64,000 nucleotides of DNA, from contig JAWKTX010000014.1 in the NCBI GenBank assembly GCA_041398825.1, positions 77,110 through 141,109 of the forward strand. The letters run 5' to 3'. Both the position numbers and the translations under genes were made by a program. Under the pieces are notes generated by a model that had not been told where the DNA came from, did not search any database, and saw nothing but the letters and a program-made list of their open reading frames with translations. This stretch comes from Planctomycetaceae bacterium. GTDB taxonomy: Bacteria > Planctomycetota > Planctomycetia > Planctomycetales > Planctomycetaceae. Below are positions 1,633 to 14,253 of this stretch, one piece after another. How positions within the stretch are numbered: the first letter of the stretch is position 1; the number at the start of each line of letters is the position of its first letter.

Positions 1633-3096
1633 ATGAGGTTTGTAATGAGTTCAGATGCGGAAGGTGTGCTGACAGAGACTGAAGAGTCGGCCAACCGAAT
1701 GGATTTGAAGGTAGAGATTCGCAACGTCGGTCCATGTAAGAAGCATGTCTCCGTAACCGTTCAGGAAGCGGATATCAATACAATTCGAGAGGATTGTGTT
1801 GGTGAGCTTTCCGACCGTGCACAGGTTCCGGGCTTTCGAACCGGGCGCGTGCCCCGTCAGCTGCTGGTCAAGAAGTTCAAGGACGAAATCTCCGCTCAAA
1901 TCAAGCAGAAGGTTCTGCTGGCCAGCCTGGAGCAGATGTCCGAGGAACATAATCTCGACCCGATCAGTGAACCGAACATTGATGTTGAGAGCTTGGAGAT
2001 CCCGGACGCCGGAGATTTCAGCTATGAATTCGAAGTCGAAGTTCGGCCTGAATTTGACCTTCCGGATTACGCCTCATTTACAATCCGCCGCCCATCCGGT
2101 GATGTTACGGATGAAGAGCTGGCCACCTATCGCGAGCAGTTCCTCAGCTCATACGCCAAGGCAGAAGTTGTAGAGGAGCCTGTTGTTGCTGGTGATGTCA
2201 TTGTTTGTTCCATGACTTTCGAGCACGGCGGGAATCTACTGCGTGAAGTCAAGGGCACCAGTGTTGAAGTCCTGCCGTCTGTCAACTTTCAGGACGCAGC
2301 GCTGGACGGCTTTGACAAGCTGATGGAAGGTGCGAAAGCTGGCGACACTCGAAATGCCACCGTCACCATCTCATTGCAATCGCCTGTTGTGGAAATGCGC
2401 GGCGAGCAGGTGGATCTGAAAATCGAGGTTGAAGAAGTTCGTCGCCGTCAGCCTGTTGTGATCGATCGCGAGTTTCTTGAAAACCTGAGCATCGAGTCTG
2501 AAGAGGATCTGGTTGCTGAACTCAGGTCATCACTCCAGCGTCAGGTGGAGTTTCAGCAGCGACAAACGACGCGTGAACAGGTGCTTGAGAAGATTGTTGA
2601 CGCGGCTGATTGGGATCTTCCGGAAAGCCTGGTCCGCCAGCAGACCGAAAACGCTCTGCGACGTGAGCTGCTCGAAATGGCCCAGGCTGGTTTCACGCGC
2701 GAGCACATTCTTGCTCGGGAAAATGAGCTTCGCCGCAACGCACTGGACACCACACGTCAGGCACTGAAAGAGCATTTCGTTCTGGACCGCATTGCTACCC
2801 AGGAAAACATCGAATGCGAGCCCGGCGATATCGATCGCGAGCTATTGATGATGTCTTTCCAGAGCGGTGAGCCTGTTCGACGAATTCGCGCTCGGCTGGC
2901 GAAAAACGGCATGATCGAGAATCTCGAAGCACAGCTTCGTGAAAGAAAAGCGGTTGACTTCATTCTCAGCAAAGCGACATTTGAAGACGTTGAGCGTGAA
3001 CCCGTTGTTCAGAATAATGCGGCGGGTCTCCGGTTCGCGATCTGCGGCCAGATGAACCCCAGTTTGATTGATGACACCGACGAGACAGAAGAATAG
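1633..3096 (+). CDS. tig: trigger factor (ribosome-associated chaperone / PPIase)
   Basis: The 487-aa ORF carries the N-terminal ribosome-binding signature VPGFRTGRVPRQLLVKKF and has the overall tig length. It sits upstream of clpP in the conserved tig-clpP order. A shorter start at M23 (nt 1699, MDLKVEIRNVG) is possible. Confidence 0.9.
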   Translation: MRFVMSSDAEGVLTETEESANRMDLKVEIRNVGPCKKHVSVTVQEADINTIREDCVGELSDRAQVPGFRTGRVPRQLLVKKFKDEISAQIKQKVLLASLEQMSEEHNLDPISEPNIDVESLEIPDAGDFSYEFEVEVRPEFDLPDYASFTIRRPSGDVTDEELATYREQFLSSYAKAEVVEEPVVAGDVIVCSMTFEHGGNLLREVKGTSVEVLPSVNFQDAALDGFDKLMEGAKAGDTRNATVTISLQSPVVEMRGEQVDLKIEVEEVRRRQPVVIDREFLENLSIESEEDLVAELRSSLQRQVEFQQRQTTREQVLEKIVDAADWDLPESLVRQQTENALRRELLEMAQAGFTREHILARENELRRNALDTTRQALKEHFVLDRIATQENIECEPGDIDRELLMMSFQSGEPVRRIRARLAKNGMIENLEAQLRERKAVDFILSKATFEDVEREPVVQNNAAGLRFAICGQMNPSLIDDTDETEE

Positions 3097-3119
3097 CTGG
3101 CTCGCAAGATGGATGAATG

Positions 3120-3170
3120 AGAACAGGCCGTGCCGGACATCCGTTTCGACACCGCCTGTTCTTTGTGTTT
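3120..3170 (+). terminator. possible terminator/attenuator hairpin between tig and clpP
   Basis: A 9-bp stem (agaacaggc at 3120-3128 pairing with gcctgttct at 3154-3162) encloses a 25-nt loop and is followed by the T-rich ttgtgtttct. The large loop makes it a weak candidate. Confidence 0.35.
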
Positions 3171-3216
3171 CTGATGGAATAGAACTTTGCCCTGCAAGAC
3201 CTAAGAGGAAAAGCGA

Positions 3217-3828
3217 ATGAAGGATCCTCGCACTGATTATATGCCTCTGGCAGCACGTGAGTATTCAGCTCAGCGACAGATGACTGTCGGTGATTTGTTG
3301 CTGGACAACCGGATTATCTTCCTGGATGGTCCAATTCACGACGGCAGCGCGAATCTGATCGTCATGAAGATGCTCTATCTTCAGTCAGAGAATCGCCACC
3401 AGGACATCCATCTGTACATCAACTCACCGGGTGGATCCGTTACGGCGACGCTGGCCATCTACGACATCATGCAGTTCATTGAATGCGATGTCGCGACCTA
3501 CTGCGTTGGCCTCGCCGCAAGCGGTGGTGCGATCCTTGTCGCAGGCGGAACCGCGGGCAAACGATTCGCGCTCAAGCACGCCAAGATGATGATTCACCAG
3601 CCGTATGGTCAAGTCGGTGGACAGGTCTCTGATATTGAAATTCAGGCCAAGGATATTATCGCAACGCGTGAATTGCTCAATGAAATGCTGGCCAGTCACA
3701 CAGGCCAGCCGGTTGAGCGAATTGCAAAGGACACACAACGTGACCATTACCTGACTTCTCTGGAGGCTAAGAACTATGGCCTCGTCGATGAAGTCCTGGA
3801 GCGCCCGGCTAAAGAAAAGAAGAAGTAG
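3217..3828 (+). CDS. clpP: ATP-dependent Clp protease proteolytic subunit, paralog 1
   Basis: The 203-aa ORF contains [10 protein letters not shown]. The Ser-His-Asp triad context is intact: GLAASGG, MMIHQP and DTQRDHYL. Confidence 0.92.
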
Positions 3829-3911
3829 TTTGTCTGGATCGATGCCTGTGGCTCAGATCCGAAACGAATGGATGCCCGACTTCGCTCTCTTTCTTCTTAT
3901 GGAATCAAACG

Positions 3912-4499
3912 ATGACAGTTCTTGTCCCTTATGTTGTTGAAAAAAATGGCCGCGATGAACGGGCCATGGATATCTACAGCCGGCTGCTGAAGGATCGCAT
4001 CGTTATCCTTGGTAGTGGTGTCAATGACGATGTGGCTAACAGCATAGTGGCCCAATTGCTGTTCCTGCAGTTCGATGACCCGAAAGCTGATATCCATTTC
4101 TACATCAATTCACCGGGTGGCTCGATTACCGCTGGTATGGCGATCTACGATACCATGCAGTACATCAGTTGCGATGTTGCCACATACTGCATTGGTCAGG
4201 CCGCATCGATGGGTGCTGTGCTGCTAACCGCGGGGGCGCCAGGCAAACGTCATTCGCTTCCCAACGCCCGGATCATGATTCATCAACCGCTCGCGGGCAT
4301 GGAAGGCACGGCCACAGAGCTGGAGATCCATGCGAAAGAAGTGCTGCGAATTAAGAGAAAGATGAACGAAATCCTTCTGAAGCACACCGGGCAGACTCTG
4401 GAGAAAATTGAAGAAGACACGGATCGGGATAACTTCATGTCAGCAGACGAAGCTCGTTCATACAATTTGATCGATAAGGTTCTGGATCGCCTCGAATAG
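3912..4499 (+). CDS. clpP: ATP-dependent Clp protease proteolytic subunit, paralog 2
   Basis: The 195-aa ORF is canonical ClpP, with [37 protein letters not shown] and DTDRDNFM. Confidence 0.95.
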
Positions 4500-4526
4500 A
4501 CAAACACTTTGCTGCTGCAAAACAAG

Positions 4527-4558
4527 AAGGCCACCGGGGTAACCCGTTGGCCTTTTTC
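4527..4558 (+). terminator. Rho-independent terminator after clpP2
   Basis: An outer 7-bp stem (aaggcca at 4527-4533 pairing with tggcctt at 4548-4554) encloses an inner cggg/cccg stem with a gtaa tetraloop. A T-run follows. It lies 28 nt after the clpP2 stop. Confidence 0.7.
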
Positions 4559-4783
4559 TCGTAGATGCTCCAGCGTCTGATCCCGGTTTGAAAATTCGAT
4601 ACGATCTCTACGGTTGATGCAGGAAAAGGACGATACCACAAAGTGTGGGGAGTCGGCACTTTGCGTTGATCGTAAGTGCTTATGCAGCAGAGGGTTATCG
4701 GCAATTCCTGCTGAATCTGTCCACCTTGACACGGTGAGGCCGAAAACATAACGTTCTGGACCGGCCGCCGCTTCGGCGCCAAT

Positions 4784-6031
4784 TTGAAGCGAATGGAGTC
4801 GCTAATGTCCACACCTCAAACTTCCTCCACTGGCCCCGGGTCAGCGGCGGAATCCAGCCCGGCTGTTCCTTTCATCGATCTTGTCGCACAGTATCAGACG
4901 ATTCGTACGGAAGTGCGAGATGCGGTTGATCACTGCTTCGAAAACCAGTCCTTCATCCTTGGTGATGAAGTTGCTCTGCTCGAGAAGGAGATCGCGGAAT
5001 ACTGCGACTCTCGGTTTGCTATCGGCTGTGCCTCCGGAACAGACGCATTGATCCTCGCGTTGATGGCGCTGGGAGTCGGTCGCGGCGACGAAGTAATCAC
5101 AAGTCCATTCACGTTCTTCGCCTCCGCCAGTTCCATTCATCGCGTTGGGGCCAGACCAGTCCTGGTCGATATTGACCCTGTCACGTTCAATATTTCCCCC
5201 GAGGCGGTGGAACGGGCGATTACGCCCAGAACCAAAGCCATTATGCCGGTCCACATCTTCGGGCAATGTGCTGAGATGGAACCGCTCTGGCGTCTGTCCA
5301 CGCAGTATCAGATTCCAATTGTGGAAGATGCGGCTCAGGCAATTGGTGCTGAGTACCAGGGACGCCGTGCGGGTGTTCTTGGCACGATCGGATGTTTCAG
5401 CTTTTTCCCCACAAAGAATCTCGGCGGTGCCGGCGATGGCGGAATCATGACGACTGATGATCCCGAAATCGCAGCCCGGCTTCGGCGGCTTCGGGTTCAC
5501 GGGGACAAGGGCGGGTATCACCATGTCGAAGTCGGATACAACAGTCGTCTGGACGCAATTCAGGCCGCAGTGCTGCGGGTCAAGCTGAGATATCTGGATT
5601 CGTGGACAGCTGCTCGTAATCAAAATGCTGCCCGTTATGCGGAACTCCTGTCGAATGCTGCAGAGTTACCGGATCTGATTCTGCCGACCGTTCAGCCGGA
5701 TCGACGACACGTTTTCAACCAATACACCACGCGAATCTCAGGCGGCCAGCGTGACCGAGTGATGCAGCATCTGCGATCCCAGCAGATTGGATGTGCCGTC
5801 TATTATCCGGTGCCACTGCATCTGCAGGAGTGTTTCCAGTACCTGGGATACCGCCCGGGAGACTTGCCCGTCGCCGAAAAAGCTGCCGCGGAAGTGCTCT
5901 CATTGCCCATTTACTCTGAACTTCCGGCGGAGCATCTGGAGCGAGTGGTGGGCGGCATCTACGAAGCCATGGCCGTCCGGGGAACCCTTCCGTTTCCACA
6001 AGTGGAAGAGGCGCGCCGCCACGCAGCGTAG
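4784..6031 (+). CDS. DegT/DnrJ/EryC1/StrS-family PLP-dependent sugar aminotransferase
   Basis: The 415-aa ORF contains VPFIDLVAQYQ...ILGDEVALLEKEIAEY...ASGTDAL...ITSPFTFFASA...FSFFPTKNLGGAGDGG (the PLP-Lys region). The track start is TTG; ATG alternatives lie at 4793 and 4805. Confidence 0.88.
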   Translation: MKRMESLMSTPQTSSTGPGSAAESSPAVPFIDLVAQYQTIRTEVRDAVDHCFENQSFILGDEVALLEKEIAEYCDSRFAIGCASGTDALILALMALGVGRGDEVITSPFTFFASASSIHRVGARPVLVDIDPVTFNISPEAVERAITPRTKAIMPVHIFGQCAEMEPLWRLSTQYQIPIVEDAAQAIGAEYQGRRAGVLGTIGCFSFFPTKNLGGAGDGGIMTTDDPEIAARLRRLRVHGDKGGYHHVEVGYNSRLDAIQAAVLRVKLRYLDSWTAARNQNAARYAELLSNAAELPDLILPTVQPDRRHVFNQYTTRISGGQRDRVMQHLRSQQIGCAVYYPVPLHLQECFQYLGYRPGDLPVAEKAAAEVLSLPIYSELPAEHLERVVGGIYEAMAVRGTLPFPQVEEARRHAA

Positions 6032-6142
6032 TTTTTCGGAAGGAAGACCAGTAATAACTATCCGTCGAAGCTGTGTCAGCGACGTTGACACAGCCCCTGC
6101 AACGCCTTAGCATTCGCCACGTCGAAGCTTCGGCTTTGCCCG

Positions 6143-6227
6143 GGAGAGGTGGCAGAGTGGCCGATTGCACCGGTCTTGAAAACCGGCGTCCCGCAAGGGA
6201 CCGTGAGTTCGAATCTCACCCTCTCCG
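6143..6227 (+). tRNA. tRNA-Ser (anticodon UGA)
   Basis: The acceptor ggagagg pairs with cctctcc. The anticodon stem ccggt/accgg carries the loop ctTGAaa. A long variable arm (cgtcccgcaagggaccg) is typical of class II tRNAs. The T arm is gtgag-ttcgaat-ctcac. Total length is 85 nt. Confidence 0.9.
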
Positions 6228-6558
6228 TTTTTGCTCAAATGCACTCAGACAGCCGCAATCCTTATCGAACACAGCGTGTTTAAGCACCGTGTTGATTGGG
6301 GTTGCGGCTGTTGGTGCTTCTACCCCCGAATGATCTGCCAGATCCGGTCGCTCAGTCGCTGGACCGAATGCCGGACGCGGCATGCGGGGGCGTCTTGCGT
6401 CGTCACTGGCGAATCCGGTTATCGTCCAGCAAGCTTTTCACCAACACACTGGGTATCTCTTGCCGTGATTCCATCGCGATGGCGAGGTTTTTTTGCTGCC
6501 ACGGGTTGGTCACTCTCTGACTGATCCTGAATAACCATCTGGACTTCGCAGCTCGGAA

Positions 6559-9153
6559 TCAACCACCTGAATCGATGGCGGCAAAGCTTGTCGACGTTTT
6601 ATGGTCAGCGGCTGAATGCTTCAGTTTCCCGGAATGGAGCAGCCCAATGAGCAGCGACACAATTTTCTGATCTTTTGTGCGTTCATCGGTCGCGGGTCCT
6701 GCTTCAGGGGTACTTTCCGGATTTGCTCCATGCAGTTCGGGTGAAAGGTGTTCCCAGGGAGTAATTTGCCAGCGAGTCTTCCTGAGTTTGCTGTTTGTCT
6801 TGTCGTATCGCCAGCCGCTGATGAGGCGTTCGGCAGTCCAGCGATTGTGCTCCATGATGCGGATCTTTTCACTCGTACTTTCATCGAGCGGCGATAGTGA
6901 ACTGCCTTCGGCGATGTCCTCAGCAACTCCCTCAATTCGATAACCAAGTGCGGCCGCCTTTAACACGGAGTGGATGGCAGCCGATCGGTTGGACGCACGG
7001 TCTTCTTCGGTGATGGTGTTCCAGATGTCGCGAGCAGTCTTCTCGAGGGATTGCCAATCCAGGTGAGAAAATGCCGGTCCCGGATTTGTAGCGCTGCAGG
7101 CTGACTGCAGACTCGCAATGTGAGAGTCAAATCGGCTGTCTGAGCTCTGCATCCAAACCAAATGAATCAGTCTGGCCAGCCAATCGGTCCAGCCCTGTGT
7201 GACTTCCAGGTACGAAACACTGCCGTAGCACTGGCCAAAAGGAAACAGTTCGCATCCTTTACGCGACAGAGTCTGTTCTTTGCTGGTGCGTTGCTCCGTC
7301 AATAACTGAGACAGTTCGCGCTGTCTGGGAATCCAGACGAAAATCGGACAACGTTTTTCTATGGTTCGGAGTTTCGCATTCAGTCGCTCGGCCGTCGCAA
7401 AGTTACGACGATCATCCTCGAAGCAAACCAGAATGACTGGTTTCACTCCTCTTCGTTCAATTGCGGGGACCATCTCACCAAGGAAATTCTCGTCAGTGGC
7501 TTCCGTGTATTTCGCGTAATGGATGTTGCACACATATTCTATTCCCAGCGGAGCATCCTGGTCCGATAGTCGGACGCGTTCCAGGGGTCGATAGATGCGG
7601 GAGGACCAGTGATCTGCATCTTCATTGAAATTCCACTCGCGGATCGCATTCAGGTCGGGACCAAATCGAGGATTCTTTGCGGCGAATTCCTTCGCCTTCT
7701 TTTCGATATCGTCATCAACAACGGTCAGTCTCAGACGCTTGCCGTTCTCAAAATGAGCCAGTTCGCCCAGGTGCAGAGCCAGTGTCTGTCCGAATCGGCC
7801 AAAGCCGAGCATCACAAAATGAGCGACTTCATGCGATTCATTCGGGCGCATTTCATCGCCGAATAATGTTGCGTTCGCGATGTCTGCTAACAGTCGGCGG
7901 GAAGTTCGTTCCAGAGCATTAAAGACCTCGATGTCCATCAGTCGATTCGTGCCGAGTTCGATCGCGTCTGCGCGATTGCGCAATGCAATGGCAAGGTCGC
8001 GATCCATGATGTGAGCGAAGCATCTCAACGGCGCCAGCGTCGATCCATACCAGGTCGTTCTTCTGCCGAATGCGTTCAGGATATCACGAATTTCAACCGT
8101 ACTCTCGATATTGCATTCGTCCCTGCCTGTGACGAGAAATACCTCGGCGGCTCTGGCAACGGCCGATTCGACAAGGTTTTCTCTTTTTGTCGCATCACCG
8201 ACAATGCAAAGGATTCCGTGGTCGCGAGCCCACTTCAGGTTGGGGTTACCCTCGTCCGGTTCGATGACAACAATCAAACGGCGATCTTTCATGTCGATCA
8301 GATCGGCGACCAGTTGACGTCCAATTCGACCGAGCCCGCAGACGATAATATGCCCGGAAACGTTGAGAAGCTGCAACTTCTCCCAGGAGTCATGGAACAA
8401 TACCAGAATACCGCGAGACGCTACGGTGAGCGCCAGCATCATGGCAAATCCAGCTGCCCATTGCAGGCTTTGGTTCGTCAGTCGGCTCGGCTCGACGTTA
8501 AACGCAAAAATCTGAAACGTGTCATAGAGTCCTGCGACGATAGACTCCGCCTTGTACTGATTGTCGGCTGCGAATCCAAAACTGCCAAACGCCAGGACCA
8601 GCAGCCCCAGTGCAATCACGGCAAAGCCACTCCAGCGAATGCACCATGAACTCAGCATTCGATAATGGTAAGGGAACCGTCGGCGCAGAATGGCGATCCC
8701 CATCAACAGCAACAGCACTCCCACAAGGCCATAAAAGTAGAGACTGCTGAAGTAGCCTGAAGCAGTCAGGGGCCGCCCGGTGTTACAGACGGTCGCCTTT
8801 GCAGATTCCGGCATTTGTGATCCCGGCGACCCTCGATCTGGAGATACTTCGGCGGGGCCATCCGTCTTTAAATCACGAGTGTCAGATTTTGCATCCGAAT
8901 GAGTGGTGTCCGGGGGCGGCTGCTTCGTAATTGGCATGCCATCTTCGACCGAACCCTCAGGTTGCTTTGTACGACTCTGCGAAGGTGGTTCGAAGCCGGA
9001 GGCGACAATAACGAACGCCACCACGAAGAGGATCAGTACGCCAATCAGGGCCGACGAGCCGTCTGGGACATTGGCAACAGTCCCGGTGGATTGACGGCCA
9101 TTCGACTGTGAAACGCCACTCTTATCGTTCTCCGGCATGTCCCTTTTCCGCAT
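6559..9153 (-). CDS. polytopic membrane protein with two TrkA-N/RCK-type NAD-binding Rossmann domains and C-terminal RyR-like repeats
   Basis: The 864-aa ORF has about 4-5 N-terminal TM helices, for example LIGVLILFVVAFVIVASGF and WSGFAVIALGLLVLAFGSFGF. The TrkA-N pattern is IIVCGLGRIGRQLVADL...IVGDATKRENLVESAV...EVFLVTGRDECNIES. A second GxGxxG fold begins at FVMLGFGRFGQTLALHL. The C-terminus (KIRIMEHNRWTAERLISGWRYD...ITPWEHLSPE) resembles the RyR domain (Pfam PF02026) consensus. No TVGYG-type K+ selectivity filter is visible. The RyR assignment is from memory of the consensus and needs an HMM check. Confidence 0.6.
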   Translation of the reverse strand: MRKRDMPENDKSGVSQSNGRQSTGTVANVPDGSSALIGVLILFVVAFVIVASGFEPPSQSRTKQPEGSVEDGMPITKQPPPDTTHSDAKSDTRDLKTDGPAEVSPDRGSPGSQMPESAKATVCNTGRPLTASGYFSSLYFYGLVGVLLLLMGIAILRRRFPYHYRMLSSWCIRWSGFAVIALGLLVLAFGSFGFAADNQYKAESIVAGLYDTFQIFAFNVEPSRLTNQSLQWAAGFAMMLALTVASRGILVLFHDSWEKLQLLNVSGHIIVCGLGRIGRQLVADLIDMKDRRLIVVIEPDEGNPNLKWARDHGILCIVGDATKRENLVESAVARAAEVFLVTGRDECNIESTVEIRDILNAFGRRTTWYGSTLAPLRCFAHIMDRDLAIALRNRADAIELGTNRLMDIEVFNALERTSRRLLADIANATLFGDEMRPNESHEVAHFVMLGFGRFGQTLALHLGELAHFENGKRLRLTVVDDDIEKKAKEFAAKNPRFGPDLNAIREWNFNEDADHWSSRIYRPLERVRLSDQDAPLGIEYVCNIHYAKYTEATDENFLGEMVPAIERRGVKPVILVCFEDDRRNFATAERLNAKLRTIEKRCPIFVWIPRQRELSQLLTEQRTSKEQTLSRKGCELFPFGQCYGSVSYLEVTQGWTDWLARLIHLVWMQSSDSRFDSHIASLQSACSATNPGPAFSHLDWQSLEKTARDIWNTITEEDRASNRSAAIHSVLKAAALGYRIEGVAEDIAEGSSLSPLDESTSEKIRIMEHNRWTAERLISGWRYDKTNSKLRKTRWQITPWEHLSPELHGANPESTPEAGPATDERTKDQKIVSLLIGLLHSGKLKHSAADHKTSTSFAAIDSGG

Positions 9154-9655
9154 GACATGGTGAAGTCATCCACCCATCGAAAGCCAATCCAAAACGCTTC
9201 CATATCAACTCGTGGGGGCCATCCGTTCCTTGCGTCACTGAACTCAAGTGAGTCTATTCCGCGCGGATGACTGCCACAAGGGACCCCAGGGAGTTCCAGT
9301 ATCCCCTCTATCAACTCCCGGACACGCAGTGCCAGCGCCACCTGACCTTGCCGTAATCGATTTTCAGGAATCTGTTTGAGATTTGAATACGGGGCTGACA
9401 ACGATGGTGGGTCCGGGAATCAGAAGGTTCAAAGTCCGGCGGAAATTTGCTGTCTGGATGGCTGTGGCAAAGAACCCGGGTCGTGGGTTTCAAACCTGAG
9501 AACAATGGATCAGTATGTGCTCTTCGTGGGGGGAGCGTTGGAGCCAGTGGAATTTGGCACACAGTGCTGGACAAAGCCTGGTTTGTTTCGTTTGATATCA
9601 CGTCATTATTTCTCTCGTGGATCCAGCAGGACGTGAAGATCAAACAGGTCCGGTC

Positions 9656-12600
9656 ATGAAACTGTTTTTCAATTACCGACGCGATGACACAGACGATTTG
9701 GCTGGACGTCTGCATGATCGATTGTCGGTAGAATTCGGCGCGGAGAATATTTTTAAGGACGTCGATTCCATCCGACCGGGCCAAAACTGGCGAGTCGCAC
9801 TGGAGCGGTCGATTGCTTCGTCGGATATCGTTTTGGCGATCATCGGAAAGCAATGGCTGACAATTACGGATGAGTTGGGGCAGCGACGGATCGATGCGGA
9901 AGAGGATTTTGTACGTTTTGAGCTCGAGGCGGCTCGCAGAGCTGGCAAGATCATTTTGCCAGTTGTTGTCAAAGGGGCCAGCATCCCCAATCCGTCGCTG
10001 CTGCCTGAGTCCATCCGGTGGCTTTGTGATTTTCAGCAGTCTGAACTGCGAGCAGATCCATTCTTCAAGGACGATGTTGCCCGACTCCTGGCCGAGCTCG
10101 TGCGAATTCGGGACCGGCTCAAAGATCAGCAGGCTAAAGTCAGTGCTATGCCTGCCGGAAACAGAAATGTCAGCCACGAAGCCGGAGGGATTCTGCGATG
10201 CAGCAGCTGCCATGCCCAGTGTGATCGTTCCAGTCAATACTGTGACGTCTGCGGGGCCGGGTTATGGACGACATGCCCATCGTGCGAATTGCCAGTACCA
10301 CAGAATCAGGTGTTTTGCAGCGGCTGTGGCAGCAATCTTCCAAAGCTGCGAGAGTTGATTGAGTTTACTGAAAAGACCGAAAAGCGGTTTGCAAGAACTC
10401 TGGCGATCGCAGATCCCGGGGAGCGTATGCATTCGATGGCAACCCTGGCTCGTGAGATTGAAGCCGCCATCCGCATTTATCCAAAGCATCAGCCTCTGGC
10501 ACATCTGCATTTTCAGGCGACGGAAGTTCATCGCAGGTCCGCGCGTGACCTGGCGGACGCTGTTTACGAATCCGGAAAGCTGGATCTTGCCCGAGAACAG
10601 TATACCCTGCTCAAGCAAATTGACCCTCTCAGCGAACATGCCAACGTGCAACTCGCGGCAATCGATGCTCGCTTCAAAGCGGACGCGAAAGCCTATCGAG
10701 AGCGGATTGCAAAGGGTGATTTCAAAAGGGCCATCGAAATCATCCTCAAGCTGGTCGATGCTTTCCCGGAGGACAGGCAGCTACGGGAGGACTTGCAGCA
10801 GTGTCAGGCGATACAGGACCGAATTGTTCGACTGATTCCTGAAGGTATCAGAGATCTGAAACGGCGGAAACAGTTTCTGGCGCTGGAGCAGGAGCTGCTG
10901 TGGCTCCGTCAACAAAAGATTCCTGTCAGGAAGCTTGACGAATGGCTTCAGGAAACGAAATCCATCGTTCGGCAGGCAAACCATGAATTCCTGCAGGCAC
11001 AAAGTGAATTGCGAGAGGGCCGCTTTCGACAGACCAGAAAACTTGCAAATGTCGTACTGAATCTTACTGCAGACCACGCAGGTGCCCGGGAACTGCTGGC
11101 TGCAACCAGTGGTACGGAATTAATGATTGCGAAGCTCAACGGATTGCTGCGAAAACAGCAGTACTGTGCGGCTAATCAACTGGTAAAAAAGCTGGCGGAA
11201 GACAACATCTCGGATCCCAGAGTGATACGACTGGCGGCAGCAACAAATGTCGAAATCACGACACTGGATTCGTCGATTCGACTGATACTGATGTTGTTTA
11301 TCGTCGCGTTTGTCCCGGGATATATCATCGGAAACAAAGTCTTTGAACAGCTGCAACTCAGCCCTTCAGCCACTGGTAGTCTTGTACAAACTCTCATCTG
11401 GTTGGCGAGTATTTCTGCGATCCCGGTATTTCTTGCCACTGTGTTGACGTTTGCCTTACCCAATGGCGCAGAAAGAATCTCTCGTTTTGTCTTTGACTGG
11501 CTGCCATTCGGTCGTCTGACAAGAATGAAGAAACCTGCAGGCGAGCAAAATTCCGAATCTGACGAAGAGGAAGAACTGAGCAACACCGCAGAACTGGATT
11601 CACCGGCAATTGAGACGCCCATTCCCGAACATTCCGTTCCCGGACATGATGTCGCCACCGTATCGGATAGTTCTCTGCAGACTTCGCCAGCGGAAGTGCA
11701 GGTCAAAGATGCGGGATCGGTGAACACAACTCGTCTCTCAGGAGACGATCCCCCTGACCCATTGCTGACGGTGGGGGCGGATCGTTCTGCCGGTCTGCTG
11801 GAAATGCTGTCCGTTGGTGTTCTTTTGTATTGCGTGTCCGTCGCGTGCGGAAACAACTTGTGGAACTGGTTACTTGGCCTGCGTTTTGATGCCTCGGTCG
11901 AAACGGATGCCAGGACGGTTGAAATACTCCGTCCGTTTTCAAGCGTCTTTCCATTGCTCGGGGCAGCAGTGATCGCGGTTTTCATCGAATCGGCATCCCG
12001 ATGGCGTCGTATCCTGACCGCTGGTGGAATCGGAATTCTCATCCAACTGCTGACCGCCATCCTTTTTCCGACAGCGGCGAAGTCCATCCAGGCAATCGTT
12101 CTTGGATTGATTCTTCTGTTGGTCATTTCCGAAGTGCGACGCGTATCCGTTGGCCGTGTCCTGCTCGTTCAGTTGGGCGCATTGACTGGAGCAACTTTGG
12201 TGTTTTCGGCAGCAATCCTGCCTCTGTTGCTTGCAGCAATTCTGCTGGGCTTTGAAAGCCGGTCGATTCCAGCGGCGTCTTTTTTGCAGGTGTGCCTGAC
12301 ATCGTTATTAATGTGCCAGATCTACGTTTCTGGTTCTTCTGCTGGTTCACTGCAGATTTCACGACTAGCGGCTGACTATCCGGCAGTTCGCGGCACCATG
12401 TCGATTGGTGCGGGCTGGATCGCTGCGGCAATCATTACGATTTCGGTTAGCTGGCTCACGTCTATTGTCCGTGAAGAATGGCACGGCGTTGCAAAGTGGG
12501 TACTTCTTATCTTCATGCTGCAGATGATACCTTTCGGTTTATCAGGCAGACTCGGACTGCGTTCTCAGCGGCTTTGGTTACTGGTGAGCGTGGTCTGGAC

Positions 12601-12802
12601 CACAACAGTTGCGGCCTTGTGGTGGCTACTGCCGACATCAGCTCTGCTTATGTTCCCCGTCACATTTGCATTCAGTGCGATCAGCCTGCTTCGGCTGGAA
12701 ACCTGCAACGTATTTACTCACTGGAACACTATCTGGCAGCAAATAAGGGTCAGACACTCAAGGCGTATGTTCGTCATCCGGCAAGTTCTTCGCCGCAACT
12801 GA
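9656..12802 (+). CDS. TIR-domain protein fused to a double zinc ribbon, helical repeats and a polytopic membrane domain
   Basis: The N-terminus reads MKLFFNYRRDDTDDLAGRLHDRL...IFKDVDSIRPGQNW...SSDIVLAIIGKQWL...EDFVRFELEAARRAGKIILPVVV, the bacterial TIR_2 pattern. It is followed by CSSC..CDVC..CPSC..CSGC (four CxxC pairs), ~330 aa of helical/TPR-like sequence, 2 TM helices, an acidic linker (SESDEEEELS) and ~8-10 more TM helices. The track ORF starts at GTG 9617. The ATG at 9656 sits directly in front of the TIR core, so it is preferred. Confidence 0.8.
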   Translation: MKLFFNYRRDDTDDLAGRLHDRLSVEFGAENIFKDVDSIRPGQNWRVALERSIASSDIVLAIIGKQWLTITDELGQRRIDAEEDFVRFELEAARRAGKIILPVVVKGASIPNPSLLPESIRWLCDFQQSELRADPFFKDDVARLLAELVRIRDRLKDQQAKVSAMPAGNRNVSHEAGGILRCSSCHAQCDRSSQYCDVCGAGLWTTCPSCELPVPQNQVFCSGCGSNLPKLRELIEFTEKTEKRFARTLAIADPGERMHSMATLAREIEAAIRIYPKHQPLAHLHFQATEVHRRSARDLADAVYESGKLDLAREQYTLLKQIDPLSEHANVQLAAIDARFKADAKAYRERIAKGDFKRAIEIILKLVDAFPEDRQLREDLQQCQAIQDRIVRLIPEGIRDLKRRKQFLALEQELLWLRQQKIPVRKLDEWLQETKSIVRQANHEFLQAQSELREGRFRQTRKLANVVLNLTADHAGARELLAATSGTELMIAKLNGLLRKQQYCAANQLVKKLAEDNISDPRVIRLAAATNVEITTLDSSIRLILMLFIVAFVPGYIIGNKVFEQLQLSPSATGSLVQTLIWLASISAIPVFLATVLTFALPNGAERISRFVFDWLPFGRLTRMKKPAGEQNSESDEEEELSNTAELDSPAIETPIPEHSVPGHDVATVSDSSLQTSPAEVQVKDAGSVNTTRLSGDDPPDPLLTVGADRSAGLLEMLSVGVLLYCVSVACGNNLWNWLLGLRFDASVETDARTVEILRPFSSVFPLLGAAVIAVFIESASRWRRILTAGGIGILIQLLTAILFPTAAKSIQAIVLGLILLLVISEVRRVSVGRVLLVQLGALTGATLVFSAAILPLLLAAILLGFESRSIPAASFLQVCLTSLLMCQIYVSGSSAGSLQISRLAADYPAVRGTMSIGAGWIAAAIITISVSWLTSIVREEWHGVAKWVLLIFMLQMIPFGLSGRLGLRSQRLWLLVSVVWTTTVAALWWLLPTSALLMFPVTFAFSAISLLRLETCNVFTHWNTIWQQIRVRHSRRMFVIRQVLRRN

Positions 12803-13203
12803 GATCAGGGGATCGCTCAGTCGATCGCTGGAATGGATAAGCCTGAGCCATCGCCAGTAATCGAAGGCGACCATCTGCCGCTGTGTCGCGGAAAAGTAAC
12901 CTGCACTGAAGCGGCATTCATTCGTTGCCGCATATTCTGTGACGGGGTGGCGAAGGGTGAGGATTTACTCCGAGGGTTGTGCGACGCCGGACCGCGCTGG
13001 GGGTAGTCGTGTTCCTGACGCCCCGTGATTCTTCAATTTGCTACCGCTTGCCGACAGATCGACAAATGTGGCAGTGTTGAATACCCTTCAAATTTGTGGC
13101 TGATGACACGGCGCGGGCGGCTTCAGCAGAAATCATTTGTGGTGGAACTGGCAACGGCGGAAAAGACCAGAGGGAGTGGACGCTCCTTCGAGGAGACGAT
13201 TTG

Positions 13204-14253
13204 ATGCGGCTACTGGAAGAACTGACACAGGTGCCCTCGGTTCCTGGGCGGGAAGATCGAATTCGAGCCTTTATTCTGGATTACATTCGTGATCGGGAAC
13301 TGTTTGACGAGATCTCGGTCGATCCGATGGGCTCAATCATCGCTTTGCGAAAGGCACGCCCGATTGGCGGAGGGAGACCATCTGAGACTCCCAGGAAAGT
13401 CATGCTGGCAGCCCACATGGATCAAATTGGGTTTCTGGTTCGCCACATTGACGATCAGGGCTATCTGAGAGTCAACCCGGTCGGTGGATTTGACACAAGA
13501 AACCTGTTTGCTCGCCGGGTCAGGGTATGCACATCGAATGGAGATTTCGTTGGGATCATGAATCCGGGTGGCAAGCCGGTTCACATTGCCAGTGAAGCAG
13601 ACAAAAAGAAAGTGCCTGAGATTGGTGAATTCTTTATCGACCTGGGTATGTCCGCCGATGATGTCCGGGCCAACGTAGTTATTGGCGACATGGTTGTGCT
13701 CGATGGACCATTTTCGCACGTTGGACACAGCGTTGTTTCACAGTGCCTGGATAATCGTGTGGGGTGCTGGGCTCAATTGAAGGCCATTGAAAACATCCAG
13801 CACCACAATTGTGACATTTATGCTGTATTCTGTGTGCAGGAAGAAGTTGGCTTGCGTGGCGCACAGCCAGCGGCATTCGAGGTGGCTCCGGATATTGCAA
13901 TTGCCTGTGACACCACATTGTGCTGCAGGACGCCGGGAGTTCCTGAGGAAGATCGGGTTTCAGTAGCGGGTGACGGTGTCGTTCTTCACGTGATGGACTC
14001 GTCGATGATATCGGATATCCGACTCATTGAAGAACTGGAACAAATTGCACGGCAGCATTCGATTCCCTGCCAGCGGGCTATTCTTCCTCGCGGCGGCCAG
14101 GACGGCGCTGTCATCCAGCGAAGTCGTTCGGGAGTCAGAACCTTAGCCATGGCCTGCCCTGTCAAGTACATACATACGGTGACTGAAATGGCGCACAAGC
14201 TCGATCTGGAATCATATCATCAACTGTTGACGCGATGGCTTGAGAGTCTTTGA
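13204..14253 (+). CDS. M42-family metallo-aminopeptidase (FrvX / glutamyl aminopeptidase-like)
   Basis: The ORF contains MRLLEELTQVPSVPGRE...VMLAAHMDQIGFLVRHIDDQGYLRVNPVGG...DNRVGC...VQEEVGLRGA, the typical M42 motifs. The track ORF begins at GTG 13096; the ATG at 13204 matches the usual family N-terminus. Confidence 0.85.
   Translation: MRLLEELTQVPSVPGREDRIRAFILDYIRDRELFDEISVDPMGSIIALRKARPIGGGRPSETPRKVMLAAHMDQIGFLVRHIDDQGYLRVNPVGGFDTRNLFARRVRVCTSNGDFVGIMNPGGKPVHIASEADKKKVPEIGEFFIDLGMSADDVRANVVIGDMVVLDGPFSHVGHSVVSQCLDNRVGCWAQLKAIENIQHHNCDIYAVFCVQEEVGLRGAQPAAFEVAPDIAIACDTTLCCRTPGVPEEDRVSVAGDGVVLHVMDSSMISDIRLIEELEQIARQHSIPCQRAILPRGGQDGAVIQRSRSGVRTLAMACPVKYIHTVTEMAHKLDLESYHQLLTRWLESL

Follow-up and report, generated by a model that had tools for sequence, protein, structure and literature searches.

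Two divergently transcribed genes fill the space between a tRNA-Ser gene and an M42 peptidase gene in a stretch of 64,000 nucleotides, hereafter the window, from the genome of a Planctomycetaceae bacterium (assembly GCA_041398825.1, contig JAWKTX010000014.1, positions 77,110 to 141,109 of the forward strand). The leftward gene (6559-9153, minus strand) encodes a protein of 864 amino acids (aa) in which transmembrane (TM) segments are followed by two RCK domains and a RyR region, with Pfam matches to TrkA_N and RyR. The rightward gene (9656-12802, plus strand) encodes a 1048-aa protein made of a TIR domain, a zinc ribbon, a TPR-like region and multiple TM helices, with matches to TIR_2, DZR and Zn_Ribbon_1. 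According to the coordinates of the open reading frames (ORFs), both share a divergent intergenic spacer of 502 bp (9154-9655). Relatives of the 864-aa protein, called here the channel family after its predicted architecture, are recurrently encoded beside TIR genes, and we regard a functional link between TIR-domain proteins and this family as highly likely.

The two-gene segment is bounded on the left by tRNA-Ser(tga) (6143-6227, plus strand; detected by ARAGORN and scoring 58.4 bits with the Rfam tRNA model), which lies 331 nt from the 3' end of the gene for the 864-aa protein, and on the right by the M42 peptidase (13096-14253, plus strand; Pfam Peptidase_M42, E = 1.2e-80). Both boundaries serve as context only, and the ORF list contains nothing else between them. 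All coordinates given in a preliminary description of this DNA, made from the sequence alone, were confirmed by the ORFs, ARAGORN, Rfam and Pfam. The 60 ORFs of the window include a single TIR gene and a single TrkA/RyR gene, and these two are mutually adjacent. The plus-strand ORF is open from a GTG at 9617 to 12802; the ATG at 9656, which gives 1048 aa, is the most likely start, because the consensus of 22 family members begins with MKLF.NYRR. A scan of positions 6000-13200 for sigma-70 promoters and terminators returned counts at the level of shuffled sequence, and no signal above chance in the spacer.

The TIR domain of the 1048-aa protein occupies residues 1-160 (9656-10135, plus strand; Pfam TIR_2, E = 2.1e-10). 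The protein was modelled with AlphaFold2 (AF2; predicted local distance difference test score, pLDDT, of 79), and Foldseek placed the TIR domain of SARM1 as the best match to this domain, with TM-scores of 0.83-0.86 normalised by target length; AbTir was also matched. The family to which the protein belongs (hereafter the TIR-TM family) comprises 22 clusters and is centred on Planctomycetota. The glutamate E89 singled out in the preliminary description is present in the motif FVRFELEAA, in which both E89 and E91 are at least 90% conserved among the 22 family members. We take E89 to stand at the position of the catalytic glutamate, by analogy with the WVHKEI motif of SARM1. With the SARM1 fold match and the conserved E89, the domain looks enzymatic in the model.

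Downstream of the TIR domain, a double zinc ribbon (residues 180-230; 10193-10345, plus strand; DZR and Zn_Ribbon_1) contains eight invariant cysteines (C182, C185, C196, C199, C207, C210, C221 and C224). It is followed by an all-helical TPR-like region (residues 231-530; 10346-11245, plus strand), defined by the AF2 helices and by Foldseek matches to TPR proteins, and by a C-terminal membrane region (residues 531-1048; 11246-12799, plus strand), where the AF2 model and a hydrophobicity scan indicate about 11 long hydrophobic helices and a disordered loop at 624-699. The PDB fold search returned no structural relative of this membrane region.

The 864-aa protein was modelled with AF2 as a monomer on the basis of 36 homologues (pLDDT 82, predicted TM-score (pTM) 0.78). 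At its N-terminus the model shows a TM helix (33-52) and then a disordered loop (54-126), a region that is not covered by many shorter homologues. A pore-like membrane module follows (residues 131-263; 8365-8763, minus strand), laid out as a TM helix, M1, a pore helix (GLYDTFQIFAF), a non-canonical 'filter' (NVEPS) and M2; the model has helices at 138-159, 161-197, 203-216 and 228-252, and the hydrophobicity scan finds hydrophobic segments. By direct reading of the sequence, helix 203-216 resembles the pore helix of K-channels (SLYWTFVTIAT in MthK), and within it Y210 is found in 59 and Q214 in 60 of the 73 family members. The K+ selectivity filter TVGYG is absent from the protein, in which NVEPS follows the pore helix (FAFNVEPS), and there is no Pfam match to Ion_trans_2. 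Because the K+ filter is missing, flux through such a pore would probably be non-selective.

The cytoplasmic part begins with two Rossmann-type domains. RCK1 (residues 265-440; 7834-8361, minus strand) carries the TrkA_N match (residues 269-358, E = 3.7e-17) and the motif G273-x-G275-x-x-G278 with E298; conservation is nearly complete over the family (G273 in 72, G275 in 68, G278 in 67 and E or D at 298 in 69 of 73). RCK2 (residues 443-640; 7234-7827, minus strand) gives a weak match to Sacchrp_dh_NADP and carries G450-x-G452-x-x-G455 with D480 (73/73 for G450, 56/73 for D480). The GxGxxG motif and the acidic residue of the dinucleotide-ribose-binding type are intact in both domains. In Foldseek searches against the PDB, the best folds were GsuK, the TrkA gating ring, full-length MthK and Slo1, the tandem-RCK arrangement being matched by GsuK (4gx5 and 4gx2, the latter NAD-bound) and by the TrkA ring (4j9v), with a further match to 6oly. 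The protein shares with GsuK, MthK, Kch and TrkA a 2TM module with pore helix and the Rossmann GxGxxG, and has two tandem RCKs per chain as GsuK does. In contrast to GsuK, MthK and Kch, it has no TVGYG, and it carries extra tandem RyR repeats at the C-terminus and a TM helix with a disordered loop at the N-terminus. Its scores with the NCBIfam TrkA and Kef models are far under their cut-offs.

A homologue search yielded 41 clusters, centred on Planctomycetota. For the half consisting of RCK2 and RyR there are 1543, 417 and 71 clusters (50% identity) at E values up to 1e-3, 1e-10 and 1e-30, respectively. A verrucomicrobial metagenome-assembled genome contains three TrkA/RyR-like paralogues within 10 kb of each other (L079:1795-11695).

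The C-terminal module (residues 648-848) is all-helical in the AF2 model and consists of two RyR repeats. Repeat 1 (residues 648-745; 6919-7212, minus strand), formed by helices in the model, reads IH664LVW667 ... EEDR ... GYRIE and conserves the ligand motif in part, with H664 in 49 and an aromatic residue at 667 in 71 of the 73 members. Repeat 2 (residues 755-848; 6610-6891, minus strand) reads MEH769NRW772TAERLISGW781 ... R794 ... K827D828, contains the Pfam RyR match and is the predicted site for a TIR-made ligand of the ADP-ribose (ADPR) type. Its key positions are almost invariant (H769, E775 and R776 73/73, W781 72/73, W772 70/73, D828 67/73). In phmmer searches against the PDB, an RyR repeat from B. 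thetaiotaomicron aligned by its first half to residues 761-806 and by its C-terminal half to residues 713-742; the matches include 6uhi (7e-7), 6uag/3nrt and the R12 domains of RyR1, RyR2 and RyR3. Several homologues of the protein also carry precomputed PF02026 hits.

The preliminary description had set aside the RyR domain as not a known site for cyclic ADP-ribose (cADPR), a view overtaken by two 2026 preprints, according to which 2'cADPR, 3'cADPR and cADPR are ligands or substrates of RyR domains from phages. RyDEP contacts 2'/3'cADPR with H75, W78, H100 and D117, other phage RyR-domain proteins sequester such signals with nanomolar affinity, and the sponge-type proteins retain the same residues as RyDEP without catalysis (PMC13232231). 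RyR Tad (gp68 of Pectobacterium phage CB1) binds 1''-3' gcADPR (Kd 43 nM), 1''-2' gcADPR and cADPR, with contacts H129/W132, K147/H154 and K170/D171 (10.64898/2026.06.04.730250). In a 183-aa RyR Tad homologue from phage CB4 the contact residues are present at the same numbers, and its alignment with the 864-aa protein equates H129 with H769, W132 with W772, G140W141 with G780W781, H154 with R794 and K170D171 with K827D828.

RyDEP, RyR Tad and the 864-aa protein share the same Pfam domain (PF02026, the R12 repeat), and the His, Trp, Lys and Asp residues and the GW motif are identical in the RyR Tad alignment. Judged from these alignments, the putative cADPR-isomer pocket of phage type (H, W, D) is the most conserved feature of the channel family. 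In phages these proteins are small, form soluble homodimers and either destroy the signal of the host or sequester it, whereas here two repeats in one cellular chain are fused to a pore-like module and two RCKs, a fusion that suggests signal reception rather than evasion. Since phage RyR domains bind or cleave cADPR isomers and the ligand residues are conserved, the RyR repeats are a better candidate for the sensor than the RCK ring. The preliminary description had proposed a TIR signal generator or NAD+ depleter paired with a membrane effector whose gating ring reads NAD+ or a TIR product; the pairing of generator and membrane effector stands, given the recurrent adjacency described below, and the sensor is more plausibly sought in the RyR repeats. 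The intact Rossmann sites suggest, at the level of sequence, that there is room for a second input such as NAD+, NADH or ADPR.

A tblastn search with the RyR repeat of the 864-aa protein against 50,697 phage genomes gave no match, a negative that marks a limit of sensitivity and is silent on homology, because the B. thetaiotaomicron RyR repeat finds 290 phage records by the same program. These come from phages of Salmonella, Pseudomonas, Aeromonas, Arthrobacter, Gordonia and others, and are mostly hypothetical proteins.

The same residues leave space for a different role within a linked pair, in which the RyR repeats would degrade or buffer the signal, as a terminator, a threshold setter or a means of NAD+ recycling, or in which the RCK sites would sense falling NAD+ after NADase activity of the TIR protein. 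The counterparts of the catalytic dyad of RyDEP, a His and an Asp, are the almost invariant H769 and D828, and a TIR-NUDIX protein encoded next to a channel gene (see below) hints at turnover of ADPR; the GxGxxG motif and acidic residue kept in both RCK domains, together with the binding of NAD by GsuK, would fit NAD+ sensing. However, the sponge-type phage proteins keep these residues without catalysis, so that the dyad is no proof of an enzyme, and a buffering role leaves unexplained why, in more than 400 clusters, the repeats are invariably joined to a pore-like TM module and two RCKs. Moreover, membrane effectors are the rule in comparable systems. We consider this role quite improbable, and reception of a signal by the RyR repeats is the reading followed below.

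The neighbourhoods of the channel family were surveyed by comparing the family alignment with one genome per GTDB species. Of the relatives obtained, which number at least 489, the 79 best loci were taken (L numbers below designate individual loci) and reduced to 73 by dereplication at 80% identity; many of them end at contig edges, so that per-locus counts are lower bounds. Pfam was run on every ORF of 120 aa or more located no further than 1 kb from the channel anchor (168 proteins from 72 loci, the near set). TIR_2 was the commonest family, with 21 of the 168 proteins (6 + 15), and TIR, ThsB_TIR, DUF4062, AAA_16, NACHT, nSTAND1, WD40 and TPR were also recurrent. For a control, 150 genes were taken from the same loci at distances of 6 kb or more, and 6 of them had TIR_2 (near versus far, Fisher p = 0.008). 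In several loci the TIR-rich stretch extends beyond 6 kb, so that this control is conservative rather than a clean background; TIR genes generally make up well under 1% of the genes in bacterial proteomes.

Because the far control still holds 4% TIR genes, a rank-decay test was used in addition. It employed an iterated local TIR profile, by which 19 of the 21 neighbours positive in Pfam were recovered. At the first three neighbour ranks 14%, 8.9% and 7.5% of the genes were TIR-like, as compared with about 2% from rank 4 outward (rank 1 versus rank 4 and above, odds ratio 6.5, p = 6e-6). Of the 73 loci, 18 have a TIR gene within 1 kb and 25 have one within 2.5 kb; if DUF4062 genes are counted too, the latter number rises to 29. 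In eight loci (L009, L020, L033, L040, L090, L012, L070 and L027) the channel and TIR genes are on the same strand and separated by gaps of 41-201 bp, which indicate operons. The association was observed across three phyla, in Planctomycetota, Verrucomicrobiota (L070, L090), Phycisphaerae (L051) and Gammaproteobacteria, where it comprises both loci of Vreelandella sedimenti (L044, L046) and a Marinobacter locus with a TIR gene on each side (L048).

Three side observations concern the same neighbourhoods. The near genes are unusually long, with a mean of about 487 aa as compared with about 340 aa at 6 kb or more, and several exceed 1,500 aa (STAND, WD40 and PAS-kinase proteins). Among 94 near neighbours of distant family members, Pfam recognised RyR domains in 6. 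When the N-terminal DUF4062 domain of a STAND/TPR protein (L009:9980-12994) was used to seed a profile over all the loci taken, the search arrived at the TIR set after three iterations, with 98 of 107 matches shared; given this convergence, DUF4062 resembles TIR in its behaviour, and proteins of the DUF4062-STAND type add to the neighbours of the channel family.

The TIR partners are diverse in architecture, and include TIR+nSTAND1+HEAT (L012), TIR+NUDIX (L020), TIR+WD40 (L027, L051), TIR+TPR (L033), TIR+NB-ARC (L040), TIR+RHS (L044), CHASE2+TIR (L070), TIR+Sel1+DUF2610 (L032) and TIR+AAA_16 (L090), as well as proteins of 400-640 aa in which TIR is the sole recognisable domain. Two or three TIR genes are present in L011, L048 and L091. 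Such a combination, in which a single conserved membrane partner goes with many and sometimes several variable TIR 'sensor' proteins, is the pattern known from Thoeris.

Some of these contexts deserve description. The most island-like is L011, where three TIR_2 genes, a SLATT_1 gene and ParD/ParE (2707-8923) lie upstream of a 47%-identical channel homologue (10001-12667). In L020 (3487-5853) the channel gene is followed, after 45 bp and in the same orientation, by a gene for a TIR_2-NUDIX fusion; the NUDIX domain could hydrolyse ADPR-type molecules, and the fusion hints at a built-in turnover of the signal. In L006 (863-9496), and likewise in L007 and L008, a 61%-identical channel homologue stands among sugar genes (ROK, PfkB, GH32), and two genes upstream of the channel is a CAP12-PCTIR-type TIR fused to Peripla_BP_4, which may be a metabolite-sensing TIR. 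A PAS histidine kinase is encoded downstream of the channel gene in L012.

The particular pair of families seen in the window recurs in other arrangements. L009 contains the gene of a TIR-TM orthologue (53% identical) and, 41 bp downstream in the same orientation, a gene for a TrkA_N+RyR protein of 663 aa, and in L091, L097, L098 and L018 a TrkA/RyR gene, a gene for a 182-aa protein, a gene for a 455-aa TIR protein and a TIR-TM gene occur together, whereas the genes of the window are divergent. Between the three family pairs the channel proteins are 30-33% and the TIR-TM proteins 44-53% identical, so that the pairings look independent rather than descended as one inherited block. The preliminary description had made its proposal depend on co-occurrence outside this lineage, and such co-occurrence was found, both in the pairs of L009 and L091/L097/L018 and in the TIR enrichment across phyla. 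Two genes without Pfam match may represent extra components in the second arrangement: one for a 571-aa protein that overlaps the start of the channel gene (L097:3964-5679; the same in L018 and L091), and that for the 182-aa protein (L097:7918-8466), situated between the channel gene and the 455-aa TIR gene.

The domain architectures, the conserved residues and the adjacency are observed, and on balance we lean towards explaining them by a Thoeris-like module of NAD-derived signalling with an RCK/RyR channel-like effector. The membrane TIR protein would sense a stimulus via its TPR-like and multi-TM parts and oligomerise, and its SARM1-like TIR domain would use NAD+ to make a signal of the ADP-ribose type, most probably an isomer of cADPR. 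This signal would diffuse to the 864-aa protein, which probably forms a GsuK/MthK-like assembly with the 2TM pore-like module above a cytoplasmic tandem-RCK ring. There the C-terminal tandem RyR repeats would bind the signal via the H769/W772/D828 pocket, and the RCK ring would relay binding to the opening of the pore. The outcome may be loss of membrane potential and growth arrest, as abortive infection or as a stress response.

Several observations weigh against this mechanism. Within the 864-aa protein, the RyR match to Pfam (residues 753-808, E = 2.3e-4) remains sub-threshold, at 21.8 bits for a gathering score of 27.4, and the phosphate-binding His of the phage proteins is replaced by Arg (R794), a position that varies over the family (R in 29, S in 15, N in 15 and H in 8 of 73). 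Many TIR partners are of the STAND type, whose TIR domain is usually taken for an effector that depletes NAD+ and not for a signal maker. The far control still contains 4% TIR, and the enrichment may partly reflect TIR-rich regions or phyla. PADLOC has no family model that matches the 864-aa protein, and assigns the 1048-aa protein only a weak ThsB match (8.4e-4) and no other catalogued system; among near and far neighbours it gives scattered matches to GajA, DpdF, PsyrT, PD-T4-6 and PDC-S66 only. The two genes of the window are divergent and not co-transcribed, and their segment has core-like G+C and no mobility signature.

Further points of this kind concern the pairing itself. About half of the TrkA/RyR loci have no TIR-like gene within 10 kb, and no TIR gene is found near the channel homologues of L003 and L004 (about 50% identical). 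Conversely, no TrkA/RyR gene is found within 10 kb of the TIR-TM homologues of L001 and L002 (about 50% identical). Over nine independent contexts, the TIR-TM family is paired with a TrkA/RyR gene in three and has none within 8-10 kb in the other six (L001/L002, L010, L093, P0051, P0059 and P0052). The preliminary description had named as a danger to its proposal that each gene might be found alone in non-island contexts; this holds for the TIR-TM family in those six contexts, whereas the pair also recurs elsewhere. As the family stands alone, in housekeeping-like contexts, in 6/9 cases, the pairing must be facultative.

Taken to the extreme, these points would make the adjacency in the window a coincidence, with the TIR-TM protein acting as a self-contained sensor and NADase or as a non-enzymatic scaffold, and the TrkA/RyR protein as a housekeeping cation channel whose RCK and RyR sites respond to ordinary adenine nucleotides (ATP, ADP, NAD(H)). 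Such a view accounts for the divergent genes, the core-like composition, the housekeeping neighbours, the solitary TIR-TM genes and the many channel loci without a TIR neighbour, L003 and L004 included. It is also compatible with the deposition of GsuK, the best fold match, in NAD-bound form (4gx2), and with the binding of ATP and adenine ligands by the R12 domain of eukaryotic RyR (as cited in PMC13232231). On the other hand, coincidence does not predict that the same two families are paired in three arrangements, that TIR is the top neighbour family with a decay over distance (p = 6e-6) and operon-like gaps, that the association extends to Gammaproteobacteria, or that the sole TIR gene and the sole channel gene of 64 kb adjoin. 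We therefore judge a chance association unlikely and retain TIR-to-channel signalling as the working interpretation.

Whether such signalling would serve defence is a separate matter. The preliminary description had pointed to the tRNA-adjacent placement as typical of acquired islands, and this part of it did not hold: there is no integrase, no direct repeat, and the G+C content is flat at 0.51-0.56 across 1-24 kb, with no step at the segment boundaries. A 25-mer of the tRNA 3' end, searched with up to three mismatches, was found in the 64-kb window at the tRNA itself only, which confirms a caveat already made there, and neither of the two genes between tRNA-Ser and the M42 peptidase contains an integrase domain of Pfam. 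With no integrase, no repeat of the tRNA 3' end, no compositional break and no room for an integrase, a tRNA-linked island was rejected. A defence role of the pair is only suggested.

Real signalling from TIR protein to channel could instead be physiological, for example a response to stress of the envelope or to osmotic stress in which an NAD-derived messenger brings about ion flux, as a function native to Planctomycetota and their relatives. This would agree with the core-like composition and the housekeeping flanks, with the scan of viral_contigs, where the channel family alignment found no relatives, and with the merely scattered defence genes nearby. It would also agree with the sensor modules CHASE2 and Peripla_BP_4 among the partners and with the PAS histidine kinase downstream of the L012 channel gene. 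In contrast, many partners are STAND NTPase/TIR, WD40 and TPR proteins typical of conflict systems, L011 combines three TIR genes with SLATT and ParDE, some neighbourhoods contain matches to GajA, DpdF and PD-T4-6, and all systems of a TIR plus a separate effector validated so far are anti-phage. A purely physiological pathway of this sort therefore appears very unlikely to us.

Among known systems, Thoeris is the closest in organisation. A catalogue released as a preprint in December 2025 lists 29 putative Thoeris types, of which types V-XI are validated, including a type X made of a TIR (ThsB) and an 'ion channel' (ThsK) with an unknown signal, and describes membrane effectors for types II, V and VII (10.64898/2025.12.03.692087). 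The window resembles Thoeris in that a TIR with catalytic Glu is encoded beside a separate membrane effector, and the channel family in that one conserved effector occurs with TIR genes that vary and of which there may be more than one. The likeness to type X goes further, as the effector of the window is also predicted to be ion-channel-like.

A type X locus was retrieved with the published TIR sequence from Vibrio (L154). Its effector (3369-3995) has 208 aa, a K-channel-like filter (TLTYGGF), no Pfam match and neither RCK nor RyR, and BLASTP found no similarity between it and the 864-aa protein (E above 1). The TIR proteins also differ, those of type X having 155-170 aa and the domain ThsB_TIR (PF08937), whereas the window has a TIR_2 inside a 1048-aa membrane protein. 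Identity with type X was accordingly rejected: the Vibrio effector is an unrelated, filter-bearing mini-channel, and the TIR is of another kind. In this Vibrio sp. the effector lies between two ThsB_TIR genes (L154:2740-4468), that is, two TIR genes with one effector.

Membership in another catalogued defence system was rejected as well, since PADLOC and NCBIfam return nothing for the channel protein, and for the TIR protein only sub-threshold matches to ThsB and to ThcB4 (22.5 bits for a cut-off of 220). In the Thoeris catalogue the words TrkA and RyR are absent from the text and supplements, as far as these were available, and RCK is absent from the text (10.64898/2025.12.03.692087). The RyDEP paper makes no mention of TrkA or transmembrane proteins, and 'effector' refers there to known Thoeris and NADase effectors (PMC13232231). 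Full-text literature searches returned no description of this architecture next to TIR genes, an absence that is no proof of novelty. Thoeris-like TIR signalling is known, and the RCK/RyR channel-like effector family is probably new.

If the proposed mechanism is true, immune or stress signalling by TIR proteins gains an effector that joins RyR ligand sensing, an RCK gating ring and a pore. This effector class sits in Planctomycetota and Verrucomicrobiota, which are poorly covered by defence catalogues based on E. coli and Bacillus. We know of no function assigned until now to a bacterial RyR domain, which would gain a cellular role as a receptor. Such a role would also explain the RyR sponges and glycosidases of phages, in which a host receptor domain was perhaps captured.

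A bolder generalisation, which we hold tentatively and rate as less than probable, is that a widespread bacterial family of channel-like proteins gated by RCK domains, with more than 400 clusters (50% identity), uses its tandem RyR repeats as receptors for cADPR-type messengers from neighbouring TIR enzymes. It would then be an effector class of Thoeris-like kind not described before, and a prokaryotic prototype of the long-debated cADPR-ryanodine receptor axis, with the R12 repeat as a direct nucleotide sensor that gates a cation pore. As in eukaryotic ryanodine receptors, tandem RyR repeats are cytoplasmic to a cation channel, which is here channel-like by prediction, and as in the eukaryotic cADPR axis a candidate enzyme for cADPR-type products is at hand, in this case encoded next door to the gene for the 864-aa protein. 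In contrast, the six-TM RyR/IP3R core is unrelated to the RCK/2TM architecture, and the sizes differ more than 5-fold. To our knowledge, direct binding of cADPR to the eukaryotic R12 domain is not established. Whether cADPR-type molecules gate a cation channel directly via RyR repeats is a decades-old question in eukaryotic calcium signalling, which a small bacterial system would make testable; the combination of ligand-binding domain and channel could also supply parts for biosensors.

On the left flank of the segment, downstream of a tRNA-Gly (1342-1414), an ORF at 3912-4499 of the window has, read by eye, a typical ClpP protease sequence, from which this flank appears to be ordinary housekeeping DNA.

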